This document shows positions 3,753 to 57,813 of a stretch of 64,000 nt of DNA, one piece after another (position 1 is the first letter of the stretch; the number at the start of each line of letters is the position of its first letter). Origin of the DNA: Cyanidioschyzon merolae (taxonomy: Eukaryota); assembly GCA_000091205.1 (NCBI GenBank), contig AP006501.2; one strand, 5' to 3'. A program made the position numbers and the translations under genes. The notes beneath the pieces were generated by a model. It saw only the letters and a program-made list of their open reading frames with translations. It had not been told where the DNA came from and made no database searches.

Positions 3753-3939
3753 TCTGTCCGCAGCATGTACGAGCACGCGCTGCTCTACTCATTAGGGCAT
3801 TAGCGGAAGGCGATGTTCTTCGTGATCAGACGAGGGCTAGATGGCAGATCCAAGCTGGAGGACAAATCGCGAAATTTCTACCCGAATATGCCGCCGTCCG
3901 GCAAATCGGTTACACAGGCCCAATAGAGGCGATCGCTGC

Positions 3940-4570: not shown

Positions 4571-5001
4571 GTAGAGGTGTAGGATCAGGAATCGTGGTCA
4601 AAACACCTCTAGTGCGTGAACATTACGAGTCCGTAGCAAAGTGACCGTAGCGCTTCAAGAGTCTCGATCCCAGTCCACCAGCCTCAGCGCAGTGTCCCCC
4701 GAAAGCACGGGCTTGGCCCAGCGATCCTCGTGATGTACGGCCTGCTTCAGCGCCTACTGTGCCGCCGGACACCCCGACCCCGACACACGCACCATCTTGA
4801 AACCAAAAGCGTAGCGGTGCGTTGCAGCTGTTGGATCCCAAGCGGCAACCGGACACGGAACGCGAGGCGTTTCAGATGACATGACGCAAATCGCAATTTG
4901 AATCGCATCGGAGTTAAAACAAAGCTTCAGCAGTTGCCTGGTAGTGCGCTGTCGTACAACTGGGCTGCAACGGATCCGCAGCTGACTTTTGAACGTTCTG
5001 G

Positions 5002-5808
5002 ATGGGTCAGTGTGTAAGTGGCGCTTACAATCATGAAGACGACAGCTTCGTATCCATGAGGCAGCTCCTGGAGCGATACGGGAAGTATCTCTACGAGGCA
5101 CGGCCGGATCCCACTATTCAGGATATTGTGTTGTTCTGCAAAGTTTGTAAAGTTCTACCCAGTTTGAGAATAATCTTTGAAATCCCCGTAAGCACTGGGA
5201 GAGACGTTTGGACACAAGAGACATCAAAGTCGTTTTCTGGAAGGCCACGACGAAGACGTGCACTGGCAGATGAGGAAACCGAGGTATGGATAGATGAAAA
5301 CGAGCACGTCGAGACTTGTACCCGGCCCGGAGGAAAAAGCGCACGACTCTCCTTCGATTCGAACCACGCAAACAACACACCGTTGTTCCGTCGCGTGCGG
5401 GCAGAGCTTCGTGGTCTCTGCTTCGAGGCGCGTACAAGCTGGGTGGCCACGCAGATGCATCACGTCCTGACGCAATTGCTTCCTTCTCAGATGATGGCAC
5501 AGCTATGGATCTCAGCATACAAATTAGATGGATCTGTGGTTGCGGACGTTCTCAGGCTCGAAGACCGATTGCATATAAACAGAACGCTGCTCGTTACTGG
5601 TTGGGGATGCCTGCACCCCAGTATGCGAAAAGAACGAATTCTGGAGGAGCTCGAAGGATATGCGAGGCGGCATCGATGCGGAATCTGGGCGTTCCCGAAA
5701 GAGACGAAATCGTTCAACAGCACGCCCCGCAAGCACGTCCCCAGATCACGTTGTCGATCCCTAGCAGAAAGTCAGCATCGAGCACATTTATACGCATGTG
5801 AGCAATAA
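5002..5808 (+). CDS. hypothetical protein; N-terminal MGQCVSG resembles an N-myristoylation (MGxxxS) signal
   Basis: 268-aa ORF. The only supporting feature is an N-terminal Gly2/Ser6 pattern. Competing ORFs overlap it (5114..5518 −, 5316..5801 +). No conserved domain recognised. Confidence 0.3.
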   Translation: MGQCVSGAYNHEDDSFVSMRQLLERYGKYLYEARPDPTIQDIVLFCKVCKVLPSLRIIFEIPVSTGRDVWTQETSKSFSGRPRRRRALADEETEVWIDENEHVETCTRPGGKSARLSFDSNHANNTPLFRRVRAELRGLCFEARTSWVATQMHHVLTQLLPSQMMAQLWISAYKLDGSVVADVLRLEDRLHINRTLLVTGWGCLHPSMRKERILEELEGYARRHRCGIWAFPKETKSFNSTPRKHVPRSRCRSLAESQHRAHLYACEQ

Positions 5809-5899
5809 AACGAGAATCGTTCTACAACTATGCAGGGTAAACATATATGTATCCATTCACAGACATCTCCCAGCCTATTTTGAACAAGCGCATGCTACC

Positions 5900-6440
5900 G
5901 GTTTCAGTGTTTATCCATGCAGATTTCGAGCCTGAGAGGCTGCTCCACAAAGTGAGATCGCGTCAGCACCTCGGATCTCGTCGTCAGCATCGCATATCGT
6001 TTGATATTGATTGCGGAATTGAAGTCTCGGGCCACGACCTTCATGCGTTTATCACCTTTGCTGGAACCCATCCATCCTACGATTCCTGTAACTCACACCC
6101 TCTGTGCCACTACAGTCTCGTCATCGCCCCATCGATCAGATATCTTTTCTCATCTATCTCCGTTTGGTTCTTCTTCCTCTTGTTCTTCGTTATTTGCACC
6201 TCTATGTTCGACGTTTGGCGCCAAGATGTATTTTCAGGTTTTTTCCCGGGAAACCGGCGATGATGACCCTCCTGGATCCCTGACTACCATGTCCATGTCT
6301 TTTGCTTGGATTTTTTACTTGCTCAAATGAACGCACTTCGAATGCATCAGCTACAAACCGCGAAAAAGCATTTGATGACATGCACCTGGATGTGGAATGC
6401 ATTTGGCGTCTCTGAGCATGTAATACGATCTTTGTCTGGG
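5900..6440 (-). mobile_element. Copy A, a short internally deleted derivative that abuts the ALG14 start
   Basis: ORF 6202..6402 (−) reads '…FSRFVADAFEVRSFEQVK…'. An unlisted 46-aa ORF at 5904..6044 (−) reads MKVVARDFNSAINIKRYAML…. Nucleotides 6130–6440 align with 34340–34640, for example CTCAAATGAACGCACTTCGAA[T/C]GC. Confidence 0.65.
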
Positions 6441-6485
6441 ATTTGTTGGCGGCCTTTACCCCTGCTTGGGGCTGCCAAGCCGAGT

Positions 6486-7322
6486 ATGTCTATATATGTA
6501 GGTCTTTTTGCGGTCACGGTAGTGCTAGGCATCGTGTTGATCTTTTCCAAGGGCGTGCTGCTCAGTTCCGCGAACTTGTCGCGGCGCTCGTGCTTCGCAC
6601 GGGAAGCTGAGCGTCGCCGAACGCAGTGCAGCAGCCCAAACAAGCGTGTTTTTGAGGAGCTCTGGGCAAGGAGACCTTTCGAAGAGCTGCGCATCGGAGC
6701 TGATCAGCCGTTGCACTTGCTGGTCGTGCTAGGATCCGGCGGGCACACAACAGAGATGCATAGGCTTCTCAGTCGTGACGGCGGCTTGCTCAGCGAGCGC
6801 TGGGTCGACGCCCCCGTCTGGGTGACGTTTGTATATGCAAAGACTGACAAACGCACCCCTCGTTGGATAGAGCGTTTTCAGAGTGACCTTCCTCCAGGCT
6901 TTCGCGTTCTGAACTGGGTGGCAGTGCCTCGCGCTCGTGAAGTTGGTCAGTCATGGATAACAAGTGTATTCACCAGCATCCACGCTTGTGCCAGTGCGGC
7001 GGGGTTGTTTCTTTCCAGCCACTCACTGGCAACGAACGATCGCATGCGAGCACCAGCACCTAATGTCGTACTATGCAACGGACCAGGAACCTGTGTGCCT
7101 TTTTGTCTGATAGCATTTATCGTTCGAATCTGGAACTCGTTGACGAGAACCAGACCTGCTAGCGCGTATCCAAGAATTATTTTCATCGAGACAGTCGCGC
7201 GTGTTTACAGCTTGTCTCTCACCGGGAAGATCTTGTACAGATTTGCAGATCGTTTTCTTGTGCAGTGGCCAGAGCTCGCCAGGCGTTACGTTTACGCTGA
7301 ATATTACGGACGTCTGGTGTAA
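6486..7322 (+). CDS. ALG14: UDP-GlcNAc transferase subunit ALG14
   Basis: LLVVLGSGGHTTEM, VLCNGPGTCVPFCL, IIFIETVARV and FLVQWPEL are the signature ALG14 blocks. An N-terminal TM anchor (MSIYVGLFAVTVVLGIVLIF) follows Met at 6486. The track ORF begins at 6306, but 6306–6440 lies inside a repeat copy, so the downstream Met is the more likely start. Confidence 0.85.
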   Translation: MSIYVGLFAVTVVLGIVLIFSKGVLLSSANLSRRSCFAREAERRRTQCSSPNKRVFEELWARRPFEELRIGADQPLHLLVVLGSGGHTTEMHRLLSRDGGLLSERWVDAPVWVTFVYAKTDKRTPRWIERFQSDLPPGFRVLNWVAVPRAREVGQSWITSVFTSIHACASAAGLFLSSHSLATNDRMRAPAPNVVLCNGPGTCVPFCLIAFIVRIWNSLTRTRPASAYPRIIFIETVARVYSLSLTGKILYRFADRFLVQWPELARRYVYAEYYGRLV

Positions 7323-13399: not shown

Positions 13400-14090
13400 T
13401 CCAGTTTGCGCCGGAAGGGTTCTCTCCTAACGGCATGAACCAATGCGTTCATTTCCAAGAAATAAGGAATGAGCTGGGCTGTATACTCCAAAATGTCGAG
13501 ATGGAGGGAAGGTAGCCGACCGCTGCGGCGATAGAAAACCATGGAGAGCTGATAGAGCACCAAATGGCCCAGAGGGCGCGAATTCGCGGACTGCTTACAT
13601 TGACGAATTCAAGAACAGACAATAAACGCATGGAACTCTTGAACCGAGACTTTCAAGGCGCTATCAATATCAGACGATGTGCGGTGTTGAAGACAAGACC
13701 CGAGGATCTGACGCAATCCATTTTCTTGCGGGGCCAGCCTTTCAGGGTCGAAGTGTACAAGGAGAAGCTGAGACCGATCGCAGAGGGTCGGTCAAGAAAG
13801 GCTCGAAGGCGTGTCCAGGTGGGTAGCTATGTTTACCCTCCATGGCTGGGAAGCTTTTTTTTGTTGCAGTGAACGTCTTCTGTAGAACGCCAAGAAACGT
13901 CGCTCCGACACAAAGCGATCTAATACTACGCACGTACTCGAAGGGTGCTGATCGCAAGCAAAGCGTGGATCGCTACTCCCGTCTGTGCATGAAATGTGTA
14001 CGCGGTATCCGGAAGGCGCAAGACAGGAACTTTAACGCTGCCGTGAACGTCCTTCGATTGCTTGCAATCGATCTAAAGCGAACGTAAGAA
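13400..14090 (+). mobile_element. Copy B of the TnpB/Fanzor-like element (5' region + S1 + zinc-ribbon/RuvC-III S2)
   Basis: ORF 13564..13872 (…NKRMELLNRDFQGAINIRRCAVLKTRPEDL … GSYVYPPW) is followed in another frame by ORF 13842..14087 (…YSRLCMKCVRGIRKAQDRNFNAAVNVLRLLAIDLKRT*), which reads CxxC…D-R-N-F-N-A-A-V-N-V-L-R-L. An upstream TGCGTTCATTT box (~13430) resembles the 5' regions of copies A, C and D. Confidence 0.6.
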
Positions 14091-14700
14091 GACAGTCGGC
14101 GTGAAATTCGGAGATAAACGAGAAGAGATGGAAGCATTCACAGATAACGGCCACAAAAGCTCGCGCGTTTATGACAACGGAAAGCGCCCCAAACTTTAGG
14201 ATTCGTGTCCGAGTTAATGGACATGTTCCATGTGATTCTGATACCGGTGAATAGACAGCGTAGGCAATCGTGAAATCGTTAGTAGGTATTTTGTGTGCCT
14301 CTCTCCATGCCATTTGCTGGAAAGTCGTTTTTTCCGTAACATCCGATGGAGTAATGTTTGGGCGGTTCTGTGGGCTCCGTCGTCGTCGCTGACGAAAATT
14401 TCAGTAACCACAGCAGATACCAAATCGTTCGGAAATAACTGGGTACTTAACAGTTCAGGCGGATGCGGTCCGTATCGCTGCGTGGTGCGCGCCCAGCTTT
14501 TGCCCGGTGTGGAACAGTGCTTTCTCTCCAGTGCCGCAGCGGCCGGGCGACTTGCGAGTCACGGCTGGTACGAACGAGAGTGGGTCACTCGACCAGCTAC
14601 TTCGGCAGACCAAAGCTTGGGTTGCCAAGCGTCGTTTCTGAACGTGTGTTTGTGCCACGAGACCCTGCTGCAAGAAACGCCCAAAGGCTCAGGTTGAAGA

Positions 14701-24329: not shown

Positions 24330-24640
24330 CGCATCCGCCGTTGCGCTTGAACCGCTGGAGCAGATAGTTCATAGAGCTAGAACAGCTTTTCTATACCCCA
24401 GAGGGCGTCGGCTCGAGGGGTGCTTCACCCGACGTAGAATCGGGTCTCGTCGTCAGTTTGTGCTCGGACAGTCTGCGGATGCAAGCTCGCCTTCGCGGCA
24501 CGACACGCTGGAGAAACTTGGCTGTTAGGATAAATCCTGGGAGTCGCCTCTCTCCTTCGTGATCATGCATGGAATGCGTTGTTGTCGGTTGGCAATGCGG
24601 GTTTGTGCTTGACGCTCACCACAGTGGATAGGCGCAGAAA
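24330..24640 (+). repeat. Dispersed repeat R3, copy 1 (partner at 35860–36160)
   Basis: 24370–24460 aligns with 35895–35985 (CAGAT..CA.AGAG..AGAACAGCTTTTC.AT.CC..ACAGAGGGCGTCG.C.CGAG…TGCT.CACC.GACA). It encodes 'RTAFLYPRGRR', and copy 2 encodes 'RTAFPFHRGRR', a TnpB N-terminus-like block. Flanking blocks also align. Confidence 0.55.
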
Positions 24641-34033: not shown

Positions 34034-34640
34034 CTACGAGTACAGAGGGTAAGTATATACACACCTGCAGACGCGTCCCAGTCTTTTTTGATTGGCTGCC
34101 TGCTTTCGGCTGCAGTTTCTCCCTGCGCACTTCGAGTCTGAGATGCTGCCCATAAAGTTCAATCGCGCTAGCTCCTCGGGTCTCGACTTCAACGCCGCAT
34201 ATCTACTGACATTGATGGCGGCTTTGAAGTCTCGGTTCACAAATTCCATGCGTTTCTTGCTGGCGCCGCTGCTTGTACTCACCAGTGTAAGTCGTCCTCG
34301 AAGTCGTGGCCTCGGTGCTACAGCAGTATCGTCGTCGCCGTCCCGTCGGGCAAACACCTTTACTGGACTATCCCCCTACTTCGTCTTCGCCACTTGCTCT
34401 TTTCCGCTCGATGGTCGGCGAAAAGGGGAATTTTTTCGTTTCCTTTCCGGGAGCCGGCGATGATGGCCCTTCAGGATCCCCGGCTTTCATATCCATACCT
34501 TTTCCTTGGGGTTTTATCTCTTCAAATGAACGCACTTCGAACGCGTCTGCTATAAACCGCGAATAAGCATTTGGTGACACACATCTGGATGTGAATCACA
34601 ATCGAGATGAAATCCATAGCATTGAACTCCTGTGCCATCG
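34034..34640 (-). mobile_element. Copy C, a short (~0.6 kb) internally deleted derivative that retains N- and C-terminal TnpB-like ends
   Basis: ORF 34368..34580 (−) reads '…YSRFIADAFEVRSFEEIKPQGKGMD…' and matches the TnpB N-terminal signature 'kAyKfRLyPtkeQ'. ORF 34034..34357 (−) reads '…KKRMEFVNRDFKAAINVSRYAAL … SKCAGRNC … RVCRCV'. The nucleotide sequence is co-linear with 5900–6440 and, in reverse orientation, with 56060–56560. Confidence 0.65.
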
Positions 34641-35859: not shown

Positions 35860-36160
35860 TGCATGCTATGAACACCAGCCGTAGCGCCTAAACCGCTGGC
35901 GCAGATGCATCACAGAGACAGAACAGCTTTTCCATTCCACAGAGGGCGTCGCCCGAGCAATGCTACACCTGACACGGAAACAGGGCTAATTATGATTCTG
36001 GGATCCTGCAAGCTGTGCAGACGGACGCACTGCCTGCGACAGCGCGAATCGACATTATAGGAGACCACTGCGACCAGGGCGACGCCCAGGCGCAGGCTAC
36101 CGGCTCCTAGTCCCAGAATGATATGCGTTGCGGATGAGTTGGTCAGGTCTCAATAAAGCA
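35860..36160 (+). repeat. Dispersed repeat R3, copy 2, immediately upstream of element copy E
   Basis: See R3 copy 1. Confidence 0.55.
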
Positions 36161-37470
36161 CCTGCCACTGGGAGGAGCATCAAGCACTAGCCTGGGAGAC
36201 ATGTCCAGCTCGCGGGAGTTTCCGCCTGTAAAGTAAACTTTCGAAGGTATGGATGTCTCTTCCCCAGTTTGCAGTTTCTCGAAGAGGGAAAAGAAATCAT
36301 TATATCGTTGCTAGTGAATCGTGAGTCTCTGTTCTTTGTTCTAAATAGCGCGGTCGATATGCGCACCTCGAGATTTGGGAGTTACGAGACACGACGCGCA
36401 TCTCGCCATGAAGGGAAATACGATCGTGATCATTCGTTGTCTTCTTGCTCTAACGACAAGTTGCATTCGCGTAAAGTCCTAGCAAAGTATTGTTTTCATT
36501 TCAATCGTGTTTCAACTCTCAGGTTAGTGTACTCAAGTGATTTTTCACGGTTTATACCGAATGCGCTCAAAGTGCGTTATAAGAAAAATTAGGAAAAGGA
36601 AAGTTACGGAAAGGGAAGCGGAGGGTCCTGGAGACGCGGTTTCGTCGGCTAGCGGAGAAAAACGAAAAACAGTGCGGAGCAAAGCGGAGCACGAGAAGAC
36701 CAAGGAGCAAATGCAGGAGGCCGCACGTCAATGGCTGCAAGAAAGGCGACACTACGACGATATGGTAGTGAAAGACTGACTTCTCGGACATACCAGGGAT
36801 CCATCCAAGCAAAAGTTGTGAGAGGCCATCAGAAACCGTGTCGATTCGTACTCCATGAGTGTTACAAAGGCTTCGTCAGGGATCATGTATTTGGTGAGGG
36901 AGATGTATCGCGACGTGACGCACATGGAAACAGTCGAGAATCCGGAAGGGTTTTTCAACATGGCGTCTATCCGCCACCTGATGCTCGGCTCAGGGGAGAC
37001 GTCGATGAAACATGAGCGAGTGCACGCCCTCCACGAAAATCACACCAAATATCGCTTCAACGGTATTCGATACAGGGGTGACTGGGGTATTTACACCTAC
37101 GGGGCGATGAAGTACATCACGAACAAGAATAACCACATGATCGTGAACCTCAAACGTCTCGTGATATGCGCCGTCTTTGTGCTGTACCCGGGCCTCTCTC
37201 CAGAGGAATGAGATGGGCCATCGTCAGTGCCATCACCAACGATCGTCATCATGAAGATGAGGTCGAATTTGTGGACAAGAAGACCTCACGCAGGAGCACG
37301 AATAAAGCTTCTGCCCTGCGTGCGGCTACTCAAGAGCATCGTGCAGTCGTGGGGCTGGTCAATCCAGCAGAAGAGGTATCAGATATGGAATAAAGCATGG
37401 GAAAAGAAGTAACAACCAAATCCTGCGCTATTTCGTATTCCTGAACCGAGAACTCGAACACAAGGCGGAA

Positions 37471-38247
37471 ATGGAGCAGGGTGTGGGGAACAATGCAGAG
37501 TCAGAGCAACGGAAGGCTGCGCTTCTGGAGAAGCGCTTCGACGTCGTTCGTATCTGCAACATCAAGTCACAATTTGGTACAATCGGCTTCAGAGTTCTTT
37601 ACGGCATCATGAACGAGATCTGTCCGGAGTTCGATGTAAGGAAGATAGAGTTCACCGGCGAAAACCGGGAATTCCATTGGAAAAATATCTTCGATTTCAA
37701 ACGTCTCAAAACGAGTAAGCAAAAAATATTCACGAGGATGATAGAAACCGATGGGGTATCCATGTGTGTACACTATCCGCGCTTGAAGGCAGATGGTCCT
37801 GTTGCGTCGTCGGCGTCGCCCGTGACGAAGCATGAAGGTGAGAAGAAGGCGGATCCTACGACGCAGAAAGTGCGGGGAAACGACTTTGTCGTTGGCGCGG
37901 CGAAGCATGAAGATGAGAAGGAGGCGGATCCTGCGACGCAGAAAGTGCAGGATAACGACTTTGTCAGTGGCGCGAACCCCGGAAACACGAATATCATAAC
38001 CATTGCAGCATGCAAGCGTGCGGGAGATGGTAAGGACGGCAACTTACGTCTGAAAGACACGCGTCTTTTGAGGTTCTCGAGAGCAAGATACTATCGAGAA
38101 TCCGGTATAATGAATGCGAGGAAGAAAATCGACACATGGAATGCAGGAATGAAGGATCACCTGGAAGCTATGAGCGGGGTAACGAGCCGCGGAGCGGACT
38201 TTGAAGCTTTTCTGAAATTCATGGGAGTTCGTGCTGCTCACTGGTAG
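37471..38247 (+). pseudogene. TnpB/Fanzor-like ORF fragment (C-terminal half, long variant) carrying an internal 75-bp tandem duplication
   Basis: Its start (MEQ…EQRKAALLEKRF) and end (…FLKFMGVRAAHW*) are homologous to ORF 38549..38926 (MEQ…QKHRALTEEQMERRAKF … GVMYARW*). A duplicated block [25 protein letters not shown] / [25 protein letters not shown] lies at roughly 37835–37985. Confidence 0.55.
37835..37985 (+). repeat. 75-bp tandem duplication (2 units) inside the copy-E ORF
   Basis: catgaaggtgagaagaaggcggatcctacgacgcagaaagtgcggggaaacgactttgtcgttggcgcggcgaag is followed directly by catgaagatgagaaggaggcggatcctgcgacgcagaaagtgcaggataacgactttgtcagtggcgcgaacccc. Confidence 0.85.
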
Positions 38248-38548
38248 GCGCTGTGGAGAGAATATACCAAGCCCCGGTGTTCTCGTCTGTGTATGAACTT
38301 GTACTGTGGGAAGAAGCGTGCATTTGCCAACTTTTTCTATCAGTTGAACGCCTTGGCTGGAGGACGAGAGTCAGAGAGTCGTAACAGCGACTGGAGCAGG
38401 GCTCTGCGCGTCCAAGAAAGGGAGCATACTCCCTGTATCGACAAGAGCGTACAATGAGTGCGCTCACCGTTTTGTTGTAATACCGATAGATGAGTTCCGA
38501 ACGTCATACATACACCGTGAACTGGGACGTACACTTCACAGGGTCGAG

Positions 38549-38926
38549 ATGGAGCAGTACCAGCAAAGCCCTGGAGATATACAAAAACACAGAGCGCTGA
38601 CGGAAGAGCAAATGGAACGGAGGGCGAAATTTCGTGGACTAGTCGCACTGGTGAGTGTACCCAACGGCAAGAAACGTATAGAGTTTCTGAACCATGACTT
38701 TGACACAGCAATCAATGTAAGGCGATGTGCGGTGCTGGAGAACAGACCCCCCGCCCCACCCCCCGAGTTGACTAGAGCCAACTTCGTCGGGCGACCTCTC
38801 AAGGTCCCGTTGAACGGAAAGAAGCTGAAACCAATAGTAGCTGGCCGGTCGAGAAAAGCCTGGGAAGCGACTGCGCGTCTGCGTAGAGACATCCACGCTG
38901 TCGGCGTGATGTATGCGCGTTGGTAA
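38549..38926 (+). pseudogene. TnpB/Fanzor-like C-terminal fragment (S1 type: KKRIEFLNHDFDTAINVRRCAVL)
   Basis: Shares the RDFxAAINV block with ORFs 13564..13872 and 34034..34357, with which it is co-linear. Confidence 0.55.
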
Positions 38927-45864: not shown

Positions 45865-48792
45865 TCAACCACGCGAGTCCAAATCCCAGGCAGGTGAAGG
45901 CATCGGTTCCGCTTCGCTGCCGTTCGTGAAACTTACCTGCGCAATACGATCTCCAGTATCGAGTCGCTGTACGTAAACACCGGTAGCCCAGCGACCCTGA
46001 ATGGGGATGCTATCGCACGGTACGCGCACCACAGTACCCCGCTCAGTGATAAGAATAATCTCTGAGTCCGGTTCTACGCAACGCAGGCAGAGCAAACGAT
46101 CCTCCGTATCCATCTTGAAGCTGGTCGCACGCTTACCCCCGCCGCCTCGCCTCTGAATACGAAACGCATCCACATGGAGGCGTTTTCCGTAACCCTGTTC
46201 GGTAATCGCCACCAGGTAGCGCTCCGAGGTGGTGACGTCTGCACAGCCGTCGACCACATCCATATCGGCTATCGCGTCGTTCTTCCGCAGCCGCATGGAA
46301 CGCACACCCTGGGTTCGGCGTCCCGTCGACCTAAGCTGCGCTTCCGAGAGCGAGAAACGAACCGCAAGACCAGTTGTCGATGATATGATCACCGAGTCGT
46401 CGTTACCGCAGAGACGTACCCAGCGCACCGTGTCGGTATCACGCACATTCATGACAATCAGACCCCTGGCGTTCATGTTCGCAAATGCGGAGAGCGGCGT
46501 CTTTTTCAGCCAGCCCTGCTGTGTGAGTAGAAGCAGATAGCGATCCGGGGTAAAGGCGGATATGGGTACCAGCGCCGCGAGACTTGTCTCTGCATTGCCG
46601 ATGCTCGCATCGAAAACCGGTAACAGAGCGCTCAGCGGTGCACCGCGAGCTACGCGCGACGCCTGTGGTATCTGGAACGCTCGAATCGCATAGGCAGTGC
46701 CTCGTTGGGAGATCGCCAAGATGGTATCGTGATCGCGGCAGGAGAAGAAGTGAGCGACTTGGTCGTCTTCGCGAATACGCGCCGCAGCCTTGCCCCGAGT
46801 ACCGCGCCGCTGCGCTTCGAATTCGCGCATCGCCATTCGCTTCACGTAGCCTTGTTTGGTGGCGATGATCACCGATTCCTCATTGGGAACCAGGTCGATA
46901 TCGGAGAGTTCTGGCTCTTCGGGTGAAATCGCGGATCGACGTGGTCGTCCAAATTGTGACTGGATTTCCTGCAGCTCCCGAGTGATCATGGCCATAACGA
47001 GTTCACGTCTCGCGAGTGTATTCTCGAGCTCCGCGATTTGCGCCAGGAGCTCCTGATGCTCCTGATCGAGACGACCCATCTCTAGTTGGGTCAGGCGACG
47101 TAGCTGCATTCCCAAAATTGCATCTGCTTGGCGCTCGGAGAGTCCAAAGGCACCATCAGGGTCAACGAGTGCCCTGCGGGCGAAACTCACGTCGCGGGCG
47201 TTCCGCACGATGCGAATGACGGCGTCGATATCGCGGAGCGCAAGACGCAGGCCCTGCACGATGTGCTCTCGGTCTCGTGCCTTGTTCAGCTCAAAAGTGC
47301 AGCGTCTTTGAATCACCTGCACTCGATATTCGAGGAAGACTTCGAGCGCACGTCGTAGACTCAGTTTTTCAGGGCGTCGCCCTACCAACGCAAGCATGTT
47401 ACCATTGAAAGCCGCCTGCAGAGCAGTCTTCTTGAACAGCTGATTGAGCACAACGTTCTTATCTGCATCACGCTTCAGTTCAATGACGATGCGCATGCCG
47501 TCGCGGTCACTCTCATCCCGCAGATCCGCAATACCGTCCAGTTTCTTCTCGTTCACGAGTGTCGCCATTCGTTCCAAAAGTTGCGCTTTGTTCACCTGAT
47601 ACGGAAGCTCGTGGACAATAATTGCTTCACGCACGGGGCGGTTTTTCGCTCGAACCGTTTCGAACGAGGTACGCGCGCGCAAAATAATAGCTCCCTGGCC
47701 GGTTCGATGCAGGTCGCGGGAGCCGCGGAGACCCATGATAATACCACCGGTGGGAAAGTCCGGTGCGGGAATCAGCGCTTCTAGTTCCGCTTCCAGTAGT
47801 TTGGGATTCTTGATAAGGGCAATGAGCGCGCTCACGAGCTCGCGCAGGTTATGTGGCGGAATGTTCGTAGCCATCCCGACGGCGATCCCTGAGGCGCCGT
47901 TCAAAAGTAGCTGTGGCAGGCGTGCGGGTAGCACCACGGGTTCCTGGTCCGAGGCATCAAAGTTTGGCACCATATCGACCGTGTCTTGGTCAATGTCCGC
48001 GAGAAGGACGCGTTTGCTGAGCGAGGTCAGGCGACACTCGGTATAGCGCATGGCAGCTGCCTTGTCGCCATCGACAGAGCCCAGATTCCCTTGGCCATCC
48101 ACCAGGGGCTCCAGCATCGAGAAGGGCTGAGCCATGCGTACCAGTGCATCGTAGACCGCGCTGTCGCCATGCGGATGATATTTTCCCAACACTTCACCGA
48201 CCACGCGAGCACACTTGCGATACGGGCCGTCCGGATCCAAGCGCAGTTGATTCATTGCGTAGAGAATGCGGCGATGAACGGGTTTCAGCCCATCACGCGC
48301 GTCGGGAAGCGCCCTCGCGTGGATCACGCTCAGAGCATATTCCAAGTACGATCTCGCAAGAACGCTACTCACCTCCGTGTTAATAATGCTTTCATGCGGG
48401 GAGGCTTCCAGAGTACCAGCTGAGCCTGCTTCCGAAGGCTCTTCGCCCGCCGCTGGTGCAAGTTGCGCCCGAAGCTGATACGCACTGGCGCCTAGCGAGC
48501 GGCTCGCTCGGCGCCGACAGCCACCGCTCCCGACGAATGAGGAAGCGCCTGATCGCGCCGGGATAGAGAACCAGCCTAGGGCTCTCGGCTGTCGCCCAAA
48601 AGGAGCGGAGACACGGCCTTGTCTGAGCGTCACACGACAAGTGATGCCGCGTTTGACGCTCAGGTCAGTTGTGGGCAAGGCGCCCAAGTTTCGTTGCTCC
48701 GGGCCAGCGAGCACCCCCACAAAGACCAAAGCGCAATACGAGCAACCATGTTTGTAAGAATCAAGTTCCTGCATTGCCAGTAAAACCTGCAA
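45865..48792 (-). CDS. gyrA: DNA gyrase subunit A (organelle-targeted, nuclear-encoded)
   Basis: [55 protein letters not shown] and the active-site context are GyrA N-terminal signatures. A C-terminal beta-pinwheel is present. The ORF has a ~130-aa N-terminal presequence, Ser/Arg-rich over roughly its first 80 residues. Confidence 0.9.
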
Positions 48793-49899: not shown

Positions 49900-51200
49900 A
49901 ATGCTCAAGCCGTTTGCATCCTGGTCCCATACAAATGCATGGTGTGCGCGAAACCCCACGTAACATGAACGTGGAACGCTGAACCGCTTGCAACGTTGCT
50001 GGCATTCGATATTTTCCGAACTTTTCCGAAGATATGCAACCTGAAGATTCGAATTGCATGAATGAAGGCTGGCGGATCCGTATGTAGTTTCAGGATTGTG
50101 GGTCATGTCCAGGGAGTGGCTCCCGCGATTTCTCGGCACTGGAATTCGATACGTCACCGTCATCAAGATGATTTTTCGTGGCGCGCTCGAACAAGGGCTC
50201 CTAAAAGAATCGCTATCAGCATCGAGGGCACGCGCAAAAGCCTCTGCTCGTCCATTTCCGTACTCGTAATAGGTTCAAATCACGCATTCTTCAAGGTTTC
50301 GATCTTTGTGTTGCAGGGCGCCTGTTGAGTGCAGCGATTCGCACCACTCAATTGACGACGATGAAGAACATTCCACGTGATCCATTGACGATGTTTTCAT
50401 GCGCTCACGCCGAAACCTCGCTGACCGCCTCTCGGCATATCATCGATTCTGTTCGCTAGATCAACCATCATCTGTTCCGTGTCATCGATGAAATGGCACT
50501 GGGCTGCAGCATGATGCTTTTTGCGGGAGTTGCTCCCAGACGTTCAAATCTCTTCTATTCCTTTTACACGGAAATGGGTCTTGGACTAGGAGTTCAGTTA
50601 CGGTAGCGATCGTTGCCACTGCAGTGTGCGTCATCATGTCGCATAAAGGGAACGGAGACAATTGAAGACTTCTCGGTGCGTTCTCTAATCAGGCGTTCCC
50701 CTCCGGTACCCGTATCACCATGGAAAACATCGCGTTCAAGATCTCCTCTGTCGAATGGAATAGCATGTGCTTGCATATGCAGTCGATAGCGTACTCACCG
50801 AGGGTATCGCGCAGACGCAGCCCGTGATCGATGTTACGTCAACGGGCGCGAACATGGAGCAGAGCACCCTGATGAGCTGCATGGAACCCCAGGGGGCACG
50901 TATCAAACGATGAAGCAAGCCTTCTCGTTCCAAGGGGCGGCTATCGGGGAAGCATTTATAATGGATATACGGAAACACCTGATCATTGCCAAGTGTCGTC
51001 CCGGTGAAGCGCGCAGAAAGGCGGTATGTAAAAAATGAGAATAGAAAGCGATGCGCAGATCGCAGCGTTCGCTTTTAGCATAAAATACGTCGACAACTGC
51101 CGAGAGAAACAATGTAGAGACTTTCAGGCTGCCATCAGCACACTTCGACTGCTGACAATCAAGCTGAAGGGAAAGGAAAACCAAGCAGTCGCAGAAACGG
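49900..51200 (+). mobile_element. Copy F1, a ~1.2 kb repeat; direct partner of F2, lying 3' of HisA
   Basis: Nucleotide similarity to 52880–54210 across several blocks: CGATATTTTCCGAACTTTT, GCAGCGATTCGCACCACTCAATTGACGACGA, CATGGAAAACATCGCGTTC. It ends with ORF 51035..51301 '…YVDNCREKQCRDFQAAISTLRLLTIKLKGK', a CxxxC + RuvC-III-like motif. Confidence 0.6.
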
Positions 51201-51713: not shown

Positions 51714-52688
51714 TCATCGAGCAAGCATTTTCTCCAGTCTTCGTTGCCACTCCACAACCATATCAAAGGAAAGCGCGCCTCCGAAGATATCCAAAGCGGA
51801 ACCGATTGTGACATCTACTCGGCCGCAACCAACAAGTCGAACGCGTTCCAGGTCGGCTAGGTCTCGAACGCCACCCGCATACGTTGCCGGTACTGGGGAC
51901 CCGACAGCCAGCTCATGCACCAATGCTTCGTCGATACCGATTTGCTTGCCTTCAACGTCCACGGCATGTACTAAAAACTCTGCACAGTATTCGCTGAGCC
52001 ATTCCAGGAGCTGGCCACTTATTCGCAAGTCAGTTCGTCTTGTCCATCGATCCGTGTAAACGTAGTATGCGCTTTCGCTCCCCGAAATATGACTTCGGCA
52101 GCTGAGATCAAGAACCAGACGCTCTCTGCCAATACGGTGGGCTAGGCGAAGCAGTCGGGACTCATCCAGCCGACCATCCCGAAACACGTACGAAGTGACG
52201 ATCACATGGCTGGCACCGGCCTCCAAAAACCGTTCTGCATTCTCCTCCGTAATGCCACCTCCGAGCTGCATTCCCTGCGGATATGCGGCAAGAGCAGCAA
52301 GCGCAGCACGTTCCGATGCTTCGCGATCCCCTCCGAGGAGGATGATATGGCCTCCAGGCAGCGCATGCTCGCGGTACAGCGAGGCGTAGTAGGCCGCGGG
52401 TTGCGTCGCTTCGAAGTTCACCACTGACGCCCGGCTCCCGTCTGCTGATAGTGATGACCCGACTATCTGTTTAACCTTTCCGTTATGAATGTCAATGCAG
52501 GGTCGAAACCGTGTCACGCGTTCAGCAGTCGCACGAGCGGTCGGCGTCCCGGCTGTGAGCCTGGGTCGCGCTCGAACACGGGCAACTGGCGGGTGCCTGG
52601 CGCCCTCCGGGGATATTCCGGTGATTCGTCTCGTCAACGGCGGAGCGTGAATCCCCGAACTGGTGCTTGGAAAACAGAAGAGGAGCAT
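51714..52688 (-). CDS. hisA: ProFAR isomerase (HisA / HIS6)
   Basis: FRPCIDIHNGKVKQIVGSSL is the eukaryotic-type HisA N-terminal motif, and a (beta/alpha)8 fold follows. There is an N-terminal extension of about 60 aa that resembles a transit peptide. Confidence 0.85.
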   Translation of the reverse strand: MLLFCFPSTSSGIHAPPLTRRITGISPEGARHPPVARVRARPRLTAGTPTARATAERVTRFRPCIDIHNGKVKQIVGSSLSADGSRASVVNFEATQPAAYYASLYREHALPGGHIILLGGDREASERAALAALAAYPQGMQLGGGITEENAERFLEAGASHVIVTSYVFRDGRLDESRLLRLAHRIGRERLVLDLSCRSHISGSESAYYVYTDRWTRRTDLRISGQLLEWLSEYCAEFLVHAVDVEGKQIGIDEALVHELAVGSPVPATYAGGVRDLADLERVRLVGCGRVDVTIGSALDIFGGALSFDMVVEWQRRLEKMLAR

Positions 52689-52879: not shown

Positions 52880-54210
52880 TACGCCAGAGCAGTTCAAGCC
52901 TTGTGCACGCCAGACAGGCACAGGCGCGCTGCGTCTTCCACGGCAACACCCGTGTCGGATGAAAGTGGAACACTGGGCTGCTCGCATTGGTGCAGCTTTA
53001 CGATTTTTTCCGAACTTTTTTAGATGTAAAACCGCGGCTTTCGGAAAGAAGGAATATCGGCTTACGGGTTTATACGTAGTTTTAGGATTTTTGGGTGTCC
53101 TTATGGAATGGCTTCTTCGAACTTTGTCCGCTACAGCTCGTTTCGTCACCGGAATCCAGATGGGATTCTAGATCAGAATCTGGATGATTCGCAAAGTCGC
53201 CGAACATGAGTTCGAGAATCAGTCGACATCAGTTCCCGATTCATTCGAGCATGCCTCCAGTCTTCTACATTCCTTTCATGTTTCATGTTTAAACCAGATT
53301 TTCTTCAACTCTCCGATCTATGCCTTGCAAGGTGTTTCGTGGGCGCAGCAATTCGCACTTCTGGATTGACGACAAGAAAAACTCGCGGCCGTCGCTTGAC
53401 GACAAGTTCCAGAGCTCATGTCGAAAGCTCACCCAAGTCGTCACGTTTCGTAAACGATTCTGCTCGAAAGACGAGTCCTCCTCTATTTGTGGCCCTCTAC
53501 AAAACGACATTCGACTCCAGCACGACATCGCTTTTAGGGCTTGCTCCTAGAGGCTCCTATTTCCTCTGTTTGCGTCGAAACCGGATTCGGAGTCAGACTT
53601 GAGCCATCGCACCGATTGCTTCTAGTGGAGCGTTTGTCACCGCTGTGCACGAAGAGCGTGAAGACGAATCTTAATTTCTCGACACGTTCTCTGGTCTGGC
53701 TTTTCCTTCCGGTGCTCGTTTCATCATGGAAAACATCGCGTTCCACAAATCCTCTACCGAATGGAACAGCGTGTGCGTGTGTGTGCACCCGGCATCCTTC
53801 TCACAGAGGGATCCTCCAGAAAACACCTGTTACCATAGATTACGTCACCTGGCACGTAACTGGAGCAGGGCATCGAGGGGAGCCCCCTGTACCTGTCAAG
53901 GGATGTATCGAGCCATGAAGCAAGCCTTCTCGCATCAAATGGCGCTGGCCGAACGAACGAATGAGCGTGGTGAGCTTGTAGGAACACTTGACTTGGTCCA
54001 AGTGTCACCGATGCGACGGGCACATTGAGACTGTACGCATCGAAGAGGAAAATTGCAACTGACGCGTAGATCGCGACGACTTCCTGTGCACGAAATGCGT
54101 TGACAATAGCTGGAAACTGCGAATTCCGGACTTGAACGCTGACATCAACATCCTTCGACTTGTGAGAATGGAGCTGGAGAGACTAGCACATTTAAAGCCG
54201 GGTATGAGAG
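52880..54210 (+). mobile_element. Copy F2, the direct partner of F1, lying 5' of HisA on the minus strand; it carries the best-preserved zinc-ribbon/RuvC-III block
   Basis: The boundaries and motifs are the same as in F1. The C-terminal segment is listed as a separate feature at 53982..54218. Confidence 0.6.
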
Positions 54211-54218
54211 AAAGCTAA
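53982..54218 (+). pseudogene. TnpB/Fanzor C-terminal zinc ribbon + RuvC-III, interrupted by an in-frame TGA and a +1 shift
   Basis: Frame-0 translation reads EHLTWSKCHRCDGHIETVRIEEENCN[TGA]RVDRDDFLCTKCVDNSWKLRIPDLNADINILRLVRMELERLA. The blocks are 'TWSKCHRCDGH', 'CTKC' and 'DLNADINILRL'. This corresponds to the OrfB_Zn_ribbon consensus 'TSQtCSkCGh…CpnCG…DRDlNAAiNILR'. The preceding frame-2 ORF 53726..54028 ends '…FSHQMALAERTNERGELVGTLDLVQVSP', which matches 'F..qLeYKAewyGkkVv.Vdp'. Confidence 0.6.
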
Positions 54219-54320
54219 AGTACGAGATTACAGAAAAAGCCTACCAATTCTGGTATCGTCGGCAATTGAGCAAGAAAGCGCTCCCAGGAGCCGAAACATC
54301 CCTGTTCGGCGCTGTGGACC

Positions 54321-54340
54321 TTCACACACACACACACAGA
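54321..54340. repeat. (CA)8 microsatellite
   Basis: The sequence reads cacacacacacacacaga. Confidence 0.85.
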
Positions 54341-54383: not shown

Positions 54384-55805
54384 TTAGACGAGATAACCTA
54401 CCTCGGGATACGTTTTGGCAAAGTACTGCGTCCACTGCTCCAGGCTGTGACGCTGCTCAGATGTGAGCATCTTGATATCGAGCGGTGGCTTCGTCGGATC
54501 CACCATCTCTGCGGAGAGGTCCGCAAACACCAGTGCTCGGCTGGCGTCGCGCCCTGCTAGGATGTGGTACGGCTCGCCTGCTCGATAGTGGTGCGCGGCC
54601 TGGGTCACATCGAACACCCGTCGATTCACAGCGACATAAATAGGACGCTCCGACTGAGATCCGTCAAACATTGCCAGTTCCTCTGTGGTGAACGGCCGAA
54701 CGGATGGCACCCTCTCCAGTGGTGAAGCTGTGCGCTCCCAAGCGCCGGCATCGCGCTTCGCAATCGTACCGTCGGCGCGGGGTGAACCCTTCTGGGCCAG
54801 CAATTTGCGAAAATATGTCCAACTGGTCTCGTTCGGTGTCATGTAATTCGACGGTGCGTGCATGTACTCTGGATGGTGTTCCTCGACGTATGCACGGACG
54901 TCCTCGGGTAGATCCTGGTACCCGTTCTCGAGCTTCTTCGTGAAGCAATGATACACGAGACGGCCAGGGCGTTCACCCATCTCCATCCAGGGTAGCCACT
55001 GACCCATGCGAACCCAACTGCCCTGGCATGGAACGGATACGAGATTCGAATCATGAAGATCATCCACGCGTGCGTAAAGTTGGAAGAGCTCCGCGCTCTC
55101 ATAAAAGGGGCTCGCTGACTCAGCGGGGAACTCGGATGGCGGCAACGGATTCGGGTAACGGAGGAAAATTTCAATATGCCAGCAGAGGTCTGCCCCGACG
55201 CGTGTGAACGGAACCAAGAATGGTTTGCCATCACGCGGATTCTTCTCCAGAAACTGCAGGTTGACCGGGTCGTTCCAAACGTGAACGACTTGATTCTCCA
55301 TTCCCGTGAACGGGTTGTTCCAAGTTCCGTGTAGAATTCGACGATTGTCCGGATCCCTATACAGTCCTACTTCGCGGGTGAGAATGCGCCAGCCGCCTTC
55401 TACTTTCACGCAGCGCGCGATATTGTAACCCTCGAAGCCGAGGATGTGTCGCGCACCCGCGTCAGCGATGTAGGCGTGAATCTCGCCGCCAAACCAAAAC
55501 ACGACTTCTTGATCCGGAACTAGGGACGCTCGAGTTTTGATAAAGGCTCGTAAGTTTTCCTCTGAGCTGTTGCCGATCTTCTCAACATCTATTTGCGGGC
55601 GTAGTGCGAGCAAGTCGCGAGCGCTCGTCACCAGAGCTCGTTGCTGCCCCTCGGGACCGTTCACCTGTTGTGCAAGCACCACTCGATGGCGTCTTGACCC
55701 CGCTTTTCTGTACACGGCGTCGTCTGCGTGCCGCAACGAACGACTTGGTCCATAATTCGTCCGCCTGAACGAACACGGTATTGTTATGTACATAGTCTGA
55801 ACCAT
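54384..55805 (-). CDS. fusion protein: uncharacterised ~340-aa N-terminal domain + C-terminal MAPR/cytochrome-b5-like heme/steroid-binding domain
   Basis: The C-terminus (FTTEELAMFDGSQSERPIYVAVNRRVFDVTQAAHHYRAGEPYHILAGRDASRALV) aligns with PGRMC/MAPR cytochrome-b5-like domains. I do not recognise the N-terminal domain. Confidence 0.7.
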   Translation of the reverse strand: MVQTMYITIPCSFRRTNYGPSRSLRHADDAVYRKAGSRRHRVVLAQQVNGPEGQQRALVTSARDLLALRPQIDVEKIGNSSEENLRAFIKTRASLVPDQEVVFWFGGEIHAYIADAGARHILGFEGYNIARCVKVEGGWRILTREVGLYRDPDNRRILHGTWNNPFTGMENQVVHVWNDPVNLQFLEKNPRDGKPFLVPFTRVGADLCWHIEIFLRYPNPLPPSEFPAESASPFYESAELFQLYARVDDLHDSNLVSVPCQGSWVRMGQWLPWMEMGERPGRLVYHCFTKKLENGYQDLPEDVRAYVEEHHPEYMHAPSNYMTPNETSWTYFRKLLAQKGSPRADGTIAKRDAGAWERTASPLERVPSVRPFTTEELAMFDGSQSERPIYVAVNRRVFDVTQAAHHYRAGEPYHILAGRDASRALVFADLSAEMVDPTKPPLDIKMLTSEQRHSLEQWTQYFAKTYPEVGYLV

Positions 55806-56059: not shown

Positions 56060-56570
56060 GACTGGCGGGTTTACACGTTCACCTGAATTGTGTTCCACAT
56101 CCAGATGCGTGCCATCCACTGCGTGTTCGCAGTGTACAGCAGATGCGTTCGAAGTGCGTTCATTTGAACAGATAAAAATCCAAGGGAAAGATATGGACGT
56201 GCAAGTCGAGGATCCTGAAGGGATTTCAAAGCTACCTGCTTGATAAAACCCTCATCTTGCTGATTATCAAAAGGCGAAGAAGTAGAAAAAGGAGGTAGGT
56301 GAGATAACGTGCGTGCTCGACGGGATGATGTCGAGACTGTAGTGGAACATGGGGCACCAGTCTGAAGACTCCTAGCGTTGACGAGTTCATCTAGCATCAA
56401 TATATGCAAGGAGTTCGTGAACTGCGACCCCATCACCACCATCAATATCAGATGACGTGTGGCGCTGAAGACGTGAGACCCCAGGAGCTGACGCGATCCA
56501 GTTTTATGGGGCAGCCTCTGATGCTCGGAATGTGCCTGGATAATAACTGAAGCCAATAGCAGCGGGTGCG
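56060..56570 (+). mobile_element. Copy D, a short degraded derivative in plus orientation
   Basis: ORF 56040..56243 reads '…CTADAFEVRSFEQIKIQGKDMDVQVEDPEG'. A degraded '…EFVNCDPITTINIR*' lies at ~56420–56470 in a broken frame. 56075–56250 is the reverse complement of the 6250–6440 / 34470–34640 block. Confidence 0.6.
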
Positions 56571-57813
56571 CCGGTCAGAAAGGTTCGGGGGCGGGCAGGC
56601 GGCGCCTGCACGTCGGTATTCGTTTACCCCATATGATCGCGAAAAGGTTTCGCTCCACTGAGCGTATCTTGAATCTGTGATTCCACAAAATGCAACCACG
56701 ATTCCATTTCAAGTATTCGCAAAAGCTCATCGCCAATATGCAGCGACACCACCACTGGAGGACGGTGGCGTTTAAGCGCTTGGAGCAGTGTTGCAGATGC
56801 ATCTTATGCACGCGCTATTGGTACGTTCGTGTGCGTCACCCGAGCCAGGAAACAAAATGCTTTGGTAAAGCGTTCTTGATTCCGTGCAGCGTCCACACAG
56901 GCGTTATACGTGGTATGACACACCCTCACGTCAGGCTCGGTACCCGGCGGAGCACGCGAACGAACCGCTGTCTCTGAAGAGAAGTTTGTGGCAATTAGAG
57001 AAACCTGTCGATGGAGTGCGGCGTGATGGGTGCTCCCGCGACGGCGAATGCCACCTGCTCTGCCGGAGTTTTTCCAAGATGAAAGATCTTCCGATAGAGA
57101 AAATTCCTTCCACGTTGGATATCGCAAATTGCGGGCAATCGAGCAATTGCCCGCACGGAGATAGCGAGGCTGTCCCGTCTCGTAGCTAGGTGCGCGGTAT
57201 GCTCGGCACGCAGGGCACGGGGTTTACCACACCGAACCTGTACTTGCAACGAGAAGACCGGTCTGGGGCTTGTGGAACGTAGAAGCAACTGGAAGAGGAC
57301 CGCGGTCTCTTTCCTGGTAAACGGCGACATTCGTGCATCCGGATGTTCTGGTTTGAATCGTCGATCCCTTATCATCCAAAATACCGCCACTCGTTGTGCT
57401 CGTTGCAGTGCACGCGAACGTGCACACCATGGCTCGTGCTTCGCTACCAACCGCTGCGATGACTCGAGCGACGCATCGTGTGCTTCGACCCGAACGCCGA
57501 ACGCGATGCAGCCTCGCAATCACCAATAGTTGATGCACACATTGTTCTCGGCATGCGGCTCCGAGTACAGGATGGCGTCGTTTGCGCAGGAATGGTAGTC
57601 AAAATCCAAATGGAAACCTGTTTGCGGCACGAGTGCCAGCGAAACGCGAACGCGTACCGCGAGGATTATACAAGAGCATCACCCTTCGAGCGCGTCTCTT
57701 CTCCCCAGTGGTATCGGTGCTCTTACTAGGTAGCCTGCGTCACGCGTCATGCAAATCGCATATCTTCTCGAGATCACAGAAGCCGCCCTAATCGACTTTG
57801 GCGCTGGGCATTA

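Follow-up and report, generated by a model that had tools for sequence, protein, structure and literature searches.

We analysed a 64,000-nucleotide stretch of Cyanidioschyzon merolae DNA (contig AP006501.2; the window) and identify, in one of its intergenic spacers, a decayed repeat, here called copy C, whose 3' part is very probably the remnant of a Fanzor1 gene. Within the TnpB/Cas12 family of RNA-guided nucleases, Fanzor1 forms the eukaryotic branch. The spacer is bounded by a HisA-like gene (51714-52688, minus strand) and a DUF1838/cytochrome-b5 gene (54384-55805, minus strand). A related repeat, copy B, lies on the other side of the HisA-like gene in direct orientation, with the two starts 2994 bp apart; both copies are antisense relative to the surrounding genes, and the arrangement reflects either two insertions or an old local duplication. 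Four long open reading frames (ORFs) in the window are identical to C. merolae 10D proteins BAM82847-BAM82850 (including locus tag CYME_CMS247C), which belong to a 1.28-Mb chromosome record, and Pfam recognizes eukaryotic genes (a DDX1-like SPRY+DEAD helicase, a WDR26-like gene, an ARID/PHD gene) together with GyrA and the HisA-type gene. Because of these exact protein matches and the eukaryotic gene content, we assign the repeat and its tail to the nuclear genome of a red alga rather than to a prokaryote. The features of copy C are as follows.

52945-54241, plus strand: copy C, the whole decayed element, whose 3' end may reach ~54340 (self-blastn, sensitive local alignments)
52959-53760, plus strand: upstream part, probable remnant of an IS630/Tc1-mariner-type DDE transposase (Pfam, NCBIfam, Smith-Waterman)
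53763-54218, plus strand: very probable Fanzor1 C-terminal pseudogene fragment (tblastn with metagenomic protein P0053, alignment with proteins P0055 and P0070, hhalign)
53903-53954, plus strand: out-of-phase stretch 'MYRAMKQAFSHQMALAER' (DNA alignment of the copies, P0053 match)
53979-53981, plus strand: in-frame TAG just 5' of the conserved Glu of 'EHLTW' (translation, wild-strain comparison)
54003-54014, plus strand: first zinc-ribbon CxxC (CHRC); TW stands in place of the preceding [TS][TS], and Asp follows the second Cys where Gly is usual (translation)
54060-54062, plus strand: in-frame TGA (translation)
54087-54098, plus strand: second zinc-ribbon CxxC (CTKC) (translation)
54126-54155, plus strand: RuvC-III remnant 'PDLNADINIL', for which the consensus reads 'NRDLNAAINIL' (R to P, A to D; catalytic Asp codon retained)
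54216-54218, plus strand: terminal TAA (translation)

Along the tail the motifs follow one another as a 'PVTIDY' strand (the equivalent of PVIIGYG), 'GHRGEPPVPVKG-MYRAMKQAF', 'EHLTWSKCHRC', which holds the alternative (relocated) Glu and the first CxxC, then 'CTKC', 'PDLNADINILRL' (RuvC-III) and the TAA. Translation in the phase of base 53808 gives '...TWSKCHRCDGHIETVRIEEENCN*RVDRDDFLCTKCVDNSWKLRIPDLNADINILRL...', and the other phase gives 'MKQAFSHQMALAERTNERGELVGTLDLVQVSP'. The initial annotation had read a zinc ribbon and RuvC-III segment from 53900, broken by one in-frame TGA and one +1 frameshift. The peptides that it quoted are present verbatim and the TGA at 54060-54062 is confirmed, but the homologous frame begins earlier, at ~53763-53808 in the alignments with P0053, P0055 and P0070, and a second in-frame stop, the TAG at 53979-53981, had been missed. 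The single frameshift resolves into a compensating pair: a 1-bp deletion at 53902/53903, after 'PVPVKG' (GTCAAGGG in the DNA alignment of the copies), and a +1 shift within or beside a (CGAA)3 run at 53950-53961, where the same alignment shows extra bases in copy C. Only 'MYRAMKQAFSHQMALAER' lies out of phase, and 'PVKAMYRELKMAF' of P0053 agrees with that phase alone. In the block just upstream of the zinc ribbon, 'MKQAFSHQMA' had been recognized correctly as homologous, whereas 'GELVGTLDLVQVSP' belonged to a wrong frame, and 'NERMSVVSL*EHLTW' is what the homologous frame gives at that place.

Several of the residues that define the family are altered in copy C (TT to TW, CxxCG to CxxCD, RD to PD, NAA to NAD). 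The Glu of the Fanzor1 clade is kept ('EHLTW'); the clade Gly is replaced in copy C and in the consensus of the copies ('DYV'), while only intact P0053 keeps it ('GYG') and copy A does so in part ('A*G'). The published TnpB/Fanzor motif is D-X(125,275)-[TS]-[TS]-X-X-[C4 zinc finger]-X(5,50)-RD (Bao & Jurka 2013, PMC3627910). Copy C has the C4 finger, with TW for [TS][TS], PD for RD and no RuvC-I Asp; the consensus reads TT and RD, and copies A and B also retain RD. Of this motif, the repeat preserves no more than the C-terminal two thirds. Motif comparison and the alignments with intact Fanzor1 proteins find the RuvC-I Asp segment in none of the copies, so no copy could encode a nuclease. Copy C contains no intact ORF of ~600-900 aa with a complete RuvC triad, having two in-frame stops, the frameshift pair and no RuvC-I. 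Both stops recur without change in wild strains, in the five contigs that span the tail (L001, L006-L009), whose identity with the window is ~99%.

Within the window, the family to which copy C belongs (family 2) comprises three copies of ~1.25-1.4 kb and one 3' fragment, with 58-62% pairwise identity. Besides copy C these are:

3212-4565, minus strand: copy A, with a Fanzor1 tail at 3818-3297 that includes 'CIKCVGNSRKLCNRDLDAVFYIARLL' (P0053 tblastn, E=2e-7)
49952-51191, plus strand: copy B, named F1 in the initial annotation; its tail is the most decayed (both CxxC pairs lost), with 'VIDE' kept upstream
13926-14231, plus strand: copy D, a 3' fragment only, reading 'CMKCVRGIRKAQDRNFNAAVNVLRLL' (P0053 tblastn, E=1.2e-5), ~100 bp 3' of a 3' fragment of CMe-1A, the published Fanzor1 family of this alga

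Self-blastn aligns 52959-54182 with 49965-51172 (62% identity, E=3e-96) and with 4562-3371 on the minus strand (61%, E=7e-83); the last 145 bp of copy C match 13938-14081 in copy D, and copies A and D have ~150 bp more of 3' tail in common. Sensitive local alignments push the ends of copy C to 52945 and 54241. The comparison with F1 that the initial annotation had suggested (at 51035-51200, which is copy B) gives 62% identity across 1247 bp, or ~0.5 substitutions/site (Jukes-Cantor), and points to an ancient duplication that predates the CMe-1A copies, whose pairwise identity is 66-71%. The view that copy C holds the most sequence-faithful TnpB-type C-terminus in the window does not stand: a CMe-1A copy at 36609-38860 is near full length, and copy D has a cleaner 'DRNFNAAVNVLRLL'.

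From the four copies we built a majority-rule DNA consensus, settling ties toward copy C. Its translation, '...VIVVNLW*HLTTTKCHRCEAH...CLCMKCVDNSRKLRNRDLNAAINILRLL', resembles TnpB more than any one copy does. This is what decay from a real gene predicts, and chance resemblance does not. A single metagenome scan recovered only ~99%-identical wild C. merolae loci and no new paralogues, so the consensus remains limited to these four copies. A first database search with the four-copy alignment had likewise found only an orthologue of copy D. Several metagenome assemblies annotate a gene over copy D, the short ORF P0052 (81 aa).

The evidence for family membership comes from profiles and from intact relatives. 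PF07282 (Cas12f1-like_TNB, formerly OrfB_Zn_ribbon) has a gathering score of 26.3 bits. The four-copy consensus matches it at E=1.2e-7 to 4.3e-7 (30-32 bits, the best at 32.2) over profile positions 3-60 of 60, and over the same stretch the NCBIfam models Cas12f2 (E=2e-4) and guided_TnpB (E=4e-3) match as well. When the 407-aa consensus was searched against 5.8 billion proteins, a single match was returned, P0053 (610 aa, E=6.7e-10), which derives from eukaryotic metagenome contigs with 52% G+C and ends in 'RPVIIGYGTGRGNGGGHKGEPAVPVKAMYRELKMAF...GGIVNVWEHLTTKKCHRCEQ...DRDFRVCEHCSQDEQTRKIRNRDLNAAINILKLL'. An exhaustive phmmer search with P0053 (1.84 billion representatives) returned 152 proteins at E<=1e-3, all on residues 356-564, and many of them are 536-898 aa long and matched at their extreme C-terminus. 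We retrieved 11 sequences. The closest full-length ones, P0055, P0057, P0062 and P0064, carry RuvC-I 'G(L/I)DPGR(V)NLY', 'SIETDGVG', 'PVIIGYG', 'WEHLTTKKC..C' and 'NRDFNAAINIL', motifs that make them unmistakable as intact Fanzor1 proteins; P0064 also has a precomputed PF07282 match.

In tblastn against the window, one frame carries the whole alignment of P0053 with 53808-54200 (181 aa at 31% identity; E=2.6e-13 if composition is left uncorrected). Under default statistics it falls into two pieces, 53808-54017 (E=1.3e-6) and 54063-54200 (E=3e-4), with identity up to 44% over 70 aa. Alignments of two other intact Fanzor1 proteins, P0055 and P0070, start at 53763/53769. We then aligned the tail by hhalign with eight published Fanzor1 C-termini (Bao & Jurka 2013, PMC3627910, supplements 2 and 3). 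The probability was 95.8% for copy C alone (E=7.3e-9), 97.3% for the four window copies (E=2e-11) and 98.7% for the copies with P0053 and the consensus (E=3.9e-16), against 0.3% for a wrong-frame translation and 0.1% for the upstream part. With intact P0053 matching in tblastn and the wrong-frame control scoring nothing, the resemblance is more than chance. Against a Fanzor2 alignment (ACa-1, ACa-2, viral Fanzor2) the four copies reach 0.5% (E=0.12), and the ORF and Pfam survey of the window finds no recombinase-like ORF of the TnpA_IS607 type beside the copies.

Because the tail matches Fanzor1 but not Fanzor2 profiles and lies in a eukaryotic nuclear genome, we assign it to Fanzor1. In the initial annotation it had been placed with IS605 OrfB/Cas12; the TnpB-superfamily C-terminus (zinc ribbon TNB and RuvC-III 'RD-NAA-NI') is upheld, and the IS605 OrfB/Cas12 label gives way to Fanzor1 (E=2e-11, versus E=0.12 for Fanzor2). 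The tail has the zinc-ribbon/TNB domain and RuvC-III (PF07282) in common with TnpB (OrfB) of IS200/IS605 and IS607 and with type V Cas12f; it differs in its eukaryotic nuclear location, its Fanzor1-specific 'GyG' strand and relocated Glu, and its lack of a TnpA partner. With published Fanzor1 proteins (PMC3627910) it shares the full motif order: a 'vvvGyG' strand, a 'P.k.l' helix, 'dE.rTS..C..C', the second CxxC, 'NRD.NAA.N' and 'l.G..RP'. The sequences closest to it are the metagenomic proteins P0053, P0054, P0055 and P0057. What sets copy C apart from these is that it holds only the last ~150 codons, without the N-terminal region or RuvC-I, and interrupted by stops and frameshifts. We conclude that the segment is very probably a non-functional, C-terminal pseudogene fragment of Fanzor1.

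Some results weigh against this conclusion. The frame-corrected translation of copy C (~107 aa), for which the initial annotation had expected an OrfB_Zn_ribbon/TnpB hit, matches neither PF07282 nor NCBIfam TnpB above noise; with a better frame join, PF07282 reaches its best value, E=7.5. Judged from the consensus, the PF07282 domain is a property of the ancestral sequence and not of copy C, and the superfamily assignment is rescued only because the consensus and the Fanzor1-specific profiles match. That consensus is based on only three to four copies, and the frame joins in the corrected translations were picked by the analyst. PDB sequence searches with the copy alignment, the consensus and the upstream part returned no TnpB, Fanzor or Cas12 chain; what they did return was noise, including a His-tag/thrombin-site artefact.

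A single C. merolae Fanzor1 family, CMe-1A, was described by Bao & Jurka in 2013 (3169 bp, a 734-aa protein, ~150 copies; PMC3627910), and the same element had been reported by Nozaki et al. in 2007 as a 3.2-kbp repeat present in 253 copies, with weak similarity to WSSV WSV486 (PMC1955436). Its best representative in the window is:

35873-38899, plus strand: near full-length CMe-1A copy, with the Fanzor1 ORF remnant at 36609-38860 (CMe-1 tblastn)

By tblastn the CMe-1 protein aligns with this remnant over residues 2-722 (~720) at 65-70% identity (E=0) with a few frameshifts, and with fragments at 539-787, 5910-6119, 13468-13824, 34148-34312 and 56333-56623. Against copies A-D it gives nothing significant (best E=6.7 over 17 aa, and 9.8; isolated pieces of motif length), and copy C, searched by sensitive blastn, has no counterpart in the CMe-1A copy at 35.7-38.9 kb. 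The two families share a genome, a superfamily and the Fanzor1 clade type, both are old and mostly decayed, and both occur within the window. They differ in having no detectable DNA similarity and protein similarity confined to the RD-NAA-N motif. CMe-1 has lost the zinc-ribbon cysteines, whereas family 2 retains a C4 zinc ribbon, and family 2 has far fewer copies and another 5' part. CMe-1A fragments are also pairwise more alike than family 2 members (66-71% versus 58-62%). We take family 2 to be a second, older C. merolae Fanzor1 lineage, distinct from CMe-1A.

Three short CMe-1A derivatives of ~0.5-0.6 kb (5893-6404, minus strand; 34045-34611, minus strand; 56078-56623, plus strand) are internally deleted: next to no sequence separates the leader and first ~45 codons ('M..V.DPGG..SP') from the last ~90 codons ('..NRDF.AAINI.R'). 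Their appearance is that of a non-autonomous deletion subfamily, and because of them internal deletion can be called common in the window. The near full-length CMe-1A copy also has a 75-bp tandem duplication at 37821-37970 (87% identity), which comparison with CMe-1 places just 5' of RuvC-I 'GADPG'. Elsewhere the tails of the two Fanzor1 lineages lie head to tail, ~100 bp apart, CMe-1A at 13468-13824 being followed by copy D at 13926-14231 (plus strand).

The ~800 bp upstream of the tail tell a different story from the tail itself. Intact Fanzor1 proteins never match this part, although the middle regions of these proteins do pick up the diverged CMe-1A copy in the same search. In the consensus it forms one nearly open frame with three stops in ~330 codons, which reaches Pfam DDE_3 at E=0.0086 and an NCBIfam IS630 transposase at E=0.017. 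We translated the IS630-like 'Mariner' transposases encoded by the oomycete elements PUl-1 and PUl-2 from PMC3627910 supplement 2; Smith-Waterman comparison with them gives z=5.2-6.8, and 0 of 300 shuffles reach the score; 16 of 16 controls (the other two frames; CMe-1, CRe-1, ACa-1, ACa-2) fall between z -1.4 and +1.1. The alignment is colinear (residues 82-224), setting 'IDE' on the first catalytic Asp and 'MENIAFHKS' on 'LLDNCATHHAS'. Copy C still shows 'LFVALYKTTF' (position of the first catalytic D), 'GLAPRGS', 'AIAPIASSG' and 'IMENIAFHKS' (position of the second D), and copy B still reads 'VIDEMAL' at the first; the third catalytic DDE residue is missing. These similarities suggest that the upstream ~800 bp of the copies are probably an IS630/mariner-type DDE transposase gene cut off after the second catalytic Asp.

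Each line of support for this upstream assignment is weak, and some results speak against it. The DDE_3 score is weak (16.4 bits against a cut-off of 28.6), and hhalign of the upstream part with transposases gives E=0.0021 at a probability of just 13%. Pfam scans of single copies in the relevant frames yielded no match, and neither the window nor the consensus was hit by the PUl-1/PUl-2 transposases in tblastn; the similarity shows up only in Smith-Waterman alignment with shuffling and in profile methods. No terminal inverted repeats consistent across the copies and no TA duplications are demonstrable, and the reverse complement of the 5'-terminal 15-mer is absent from all 3' ends at <=3 mismatches; at ~20% decay per copy, short terminal repeats are hard to see. 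The 3' tail of copy B holds 'TTCCATTTCAT', but homology between the copies runs past it. No DDE gene stands beside the nearest intact Fanzor1 relatives with readable context. We dropped 'YSPRDRPDE' as a candidate third DDE motif, since it overlaps Fanzor-derived DNA in another frame and is probably a coincidence. An imperfect (GT)n at 53771-53785 inside the element produces a spurious 15-nt inverted repeat.

At the junction (~53755-53790) the offset between the transposase-like and Fanzor frames is identical in copies A and B, and copy C has an additional 1-bp deletion. Given the equal offset in A and B, the join was already out of frame in their common ancestor. We propose that this ancestor derived from a composite element of the PUl-1/PUl-2 type, with an IS630-type transposase 5' and Fanzor1 3', in which an internal deletion would have joined the transposase part out of frame to the Fanzor1 tail. 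The resulting non-autonomous family 2 derivative would have been mobilised in trans and then have decayed neutrally. The proposed order on one strand is that of PUl-1 and PUl-2 from Pythium ultimum, elements of 3.6-3.8 kb with both genes complete, terminal inverted repeats of 24-33 bp and TA duplications (PMC3627910, supplement 2). Family 2 differs in being ~1.3 kb long, in lacking the transposase end and the first ~75% of Fanzor1, and in showing no demonstrable inverted repeats or duplications.

The whole ~1.25-kb repeat could also be read as one compact, full-length TnpB/Fanzor2-like gene of ~400 aa, close to the IS605 OrfB view, with 'IMENIAF' as the RuvC-II Glu strand and 'LRFFPN' as an N-terminal TnpB motif. 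The size suits a bacterial TnpB, homology between the copies starts at the ATG at 52959, and the consensus is nearly open from there; 'AFHKS' would correspond to the 'D.lHK.S' helix ahead of RuvC-II in TnpB, which it resembles. Yet the upstream frame matches no Fanzor1, Fanzor2 or CMe-1 protein (the z -1.4 to +1.1 and the 0.1% hhalign probability given above), intact Fanzor1 relatives align from 53763 onward only, and the tail matches Fanzor1, not Fanzor2. Moreover, the RuvC-II-equivalent strand 'PVIIGYG' lies 3' of 'ENIAF', in a different frame in copies A and B, and 'IMENIAF' was abandoned as a RuvC-II strand once P0053 had fixed the Fanzor frame; we regard this single-gene interpretation as unlikely. 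A natural gene fusion, in which an IS630-type DDE transposase gained the Fanzor1 zinc-ribbon/RuvC-III tail as a DNA/RNA-binding module, strikes us as very unlikely. Were it true, Cyanidiales would have reused the tail repeatedly, since in P0053 of a related alga this tail follows an N-terminal domain that is host-like and unrelated; this would be a modular exaptation of a TnpB-family domain in eukaryotes.

For the tail itself, the abundance of CMe-1A (~150-253 copies; PMC3627910, PMC1955436), its six copies or fragments in the window and the CMe-1A fragment adjoining copy D might suggest that copy C is just a very decayed CMe-1A copy or fragment. The absence of any significant CMe-1 tblastn match on A-D and of any blastn match between copy C and CMe-1A, the retention in family 2 of zinc-ribbon cysteines lost in CMe-1, and its closer similarity to P0053/P0055/P0057 than to CMe-1 make this highly unlikely. 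There is hardly any more room for a fragment that still functions, whether as a domesticated zinc-ribbon protein, as a read-through or recoded gene (TGA as sense, programmed frameshift) or as a guide-RNA locus. In its favour, a related alga has an intact ORF (P0053) ending in the same tail, and the tail shows 0-1 differences in 406 bp in wild strains, versus ~0.7% across the rest of the element. These counts are far too small to indicate constraint, however, with ~2.5 differences expected and 0-1 observed. Two different stop codons, two frameshifts and mutated motif residues (TW, CD, PD, NAD) also speak against function, as do the different lesions in each paralogous copy and the lack of RuvC-I in the element. 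A guide omega/f RNA might lie in the ~150-300 bp of 3' tail shared among the four decayed copies, where Rfam and tRNA scans found nothing. That the motif arrangement arose by chance in non-coding spacer DNA is a notion to which we give practically no weight: a single copy does fail Pfam and NCBIfam, and CxxC pairs are common, but the consensus comes closer to TnpB than each of the copies does, matches to independent intact proteins reach at least E=1e-6 under default statistics, and profile-profile comparison gives E 7e-9 to 4e-16 with clean controls.

A TnpB-type tail in C. merolae is in itself expected, as Fanzor1 relics have been known there since 2007/2013, and our understanding of how the nuclease works is unaffected. 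What the Fanzor1 assignment would add is a second, older and previously unlisted Fanzor1 lineage beside CMe-1A in a very compact genome, with an ancestor that had a C4 zinc ribbon. Its closest intact relatives come from hot-spring or algal metagenomes, and one such relative lies on a virus-like contig. An association of mariner elements with Fanzor1 is known in oomycetes and algal viruses. If the upstream assignment is correct, the lineage travelled with an IS630/mariner transposase and the association reaches red algae; the family 2 Fanzor1 lineage is probably mariner/IS630-associated. Family 2 may be among the eight 'class II' elements of Nozaki et al. 2007, which were closest to bacterial transposases (E=0.071 to 6e-7; PMC1955436). 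In practice, a single decayed copy is missed by standard Pfam scans, and a few-copy consensus or a clade-specific profile recovers such relics.

The intact relatives have contexts of their own. P0053 is encoded at 4950-6833 of its locus (L015; also L016-L019) as an intact ORF of 610-627 aa beside Rpb2 in metagenome contigs of a related eukaryote. Its host-like N-terminal domain, which seems paralogous to that of the adjacent 640-aa gene, is joined to an undamaged Fanzor1 tail (Glu, C4 finger and RD kept; no RuvC-I), and the protein is possibly an exaptation or a very young fusion. The gene for P0055 (551 aa; L021, contig Ga0399894_004485, 5569-7224) adjoins RNA-ligase, 2H-SAK and Peptidase_S74 genes, neighbours that suggest a large DNA virus. 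Fanzor1 has been linked to algal viruses, and this context agrees.

A few minor features of the window remain. In the 3' tail of copy C, a (CA)n microsatellite occupies 54320-54338, where other copies read 'TTC-CAT'. A 79-nt direct repeat (24332-24410 and 35873-35951, 81% identity) matches the 5' region of the CMe-1A consensus, which is common to TE-N2_CMe, and 24332-24410 may be a solo TE-N2_CMe-type element. The GyrA ORF (45865-48792, minus strand; 975 aa as listed) has a ~150-aa N-terminal extension ahead of the topoisomerase domain. The extension is consistent with an organelle-targeting peptide, from which we infer that this GyrA is plastid-targeted, and its listed TTG start is probably wrong.

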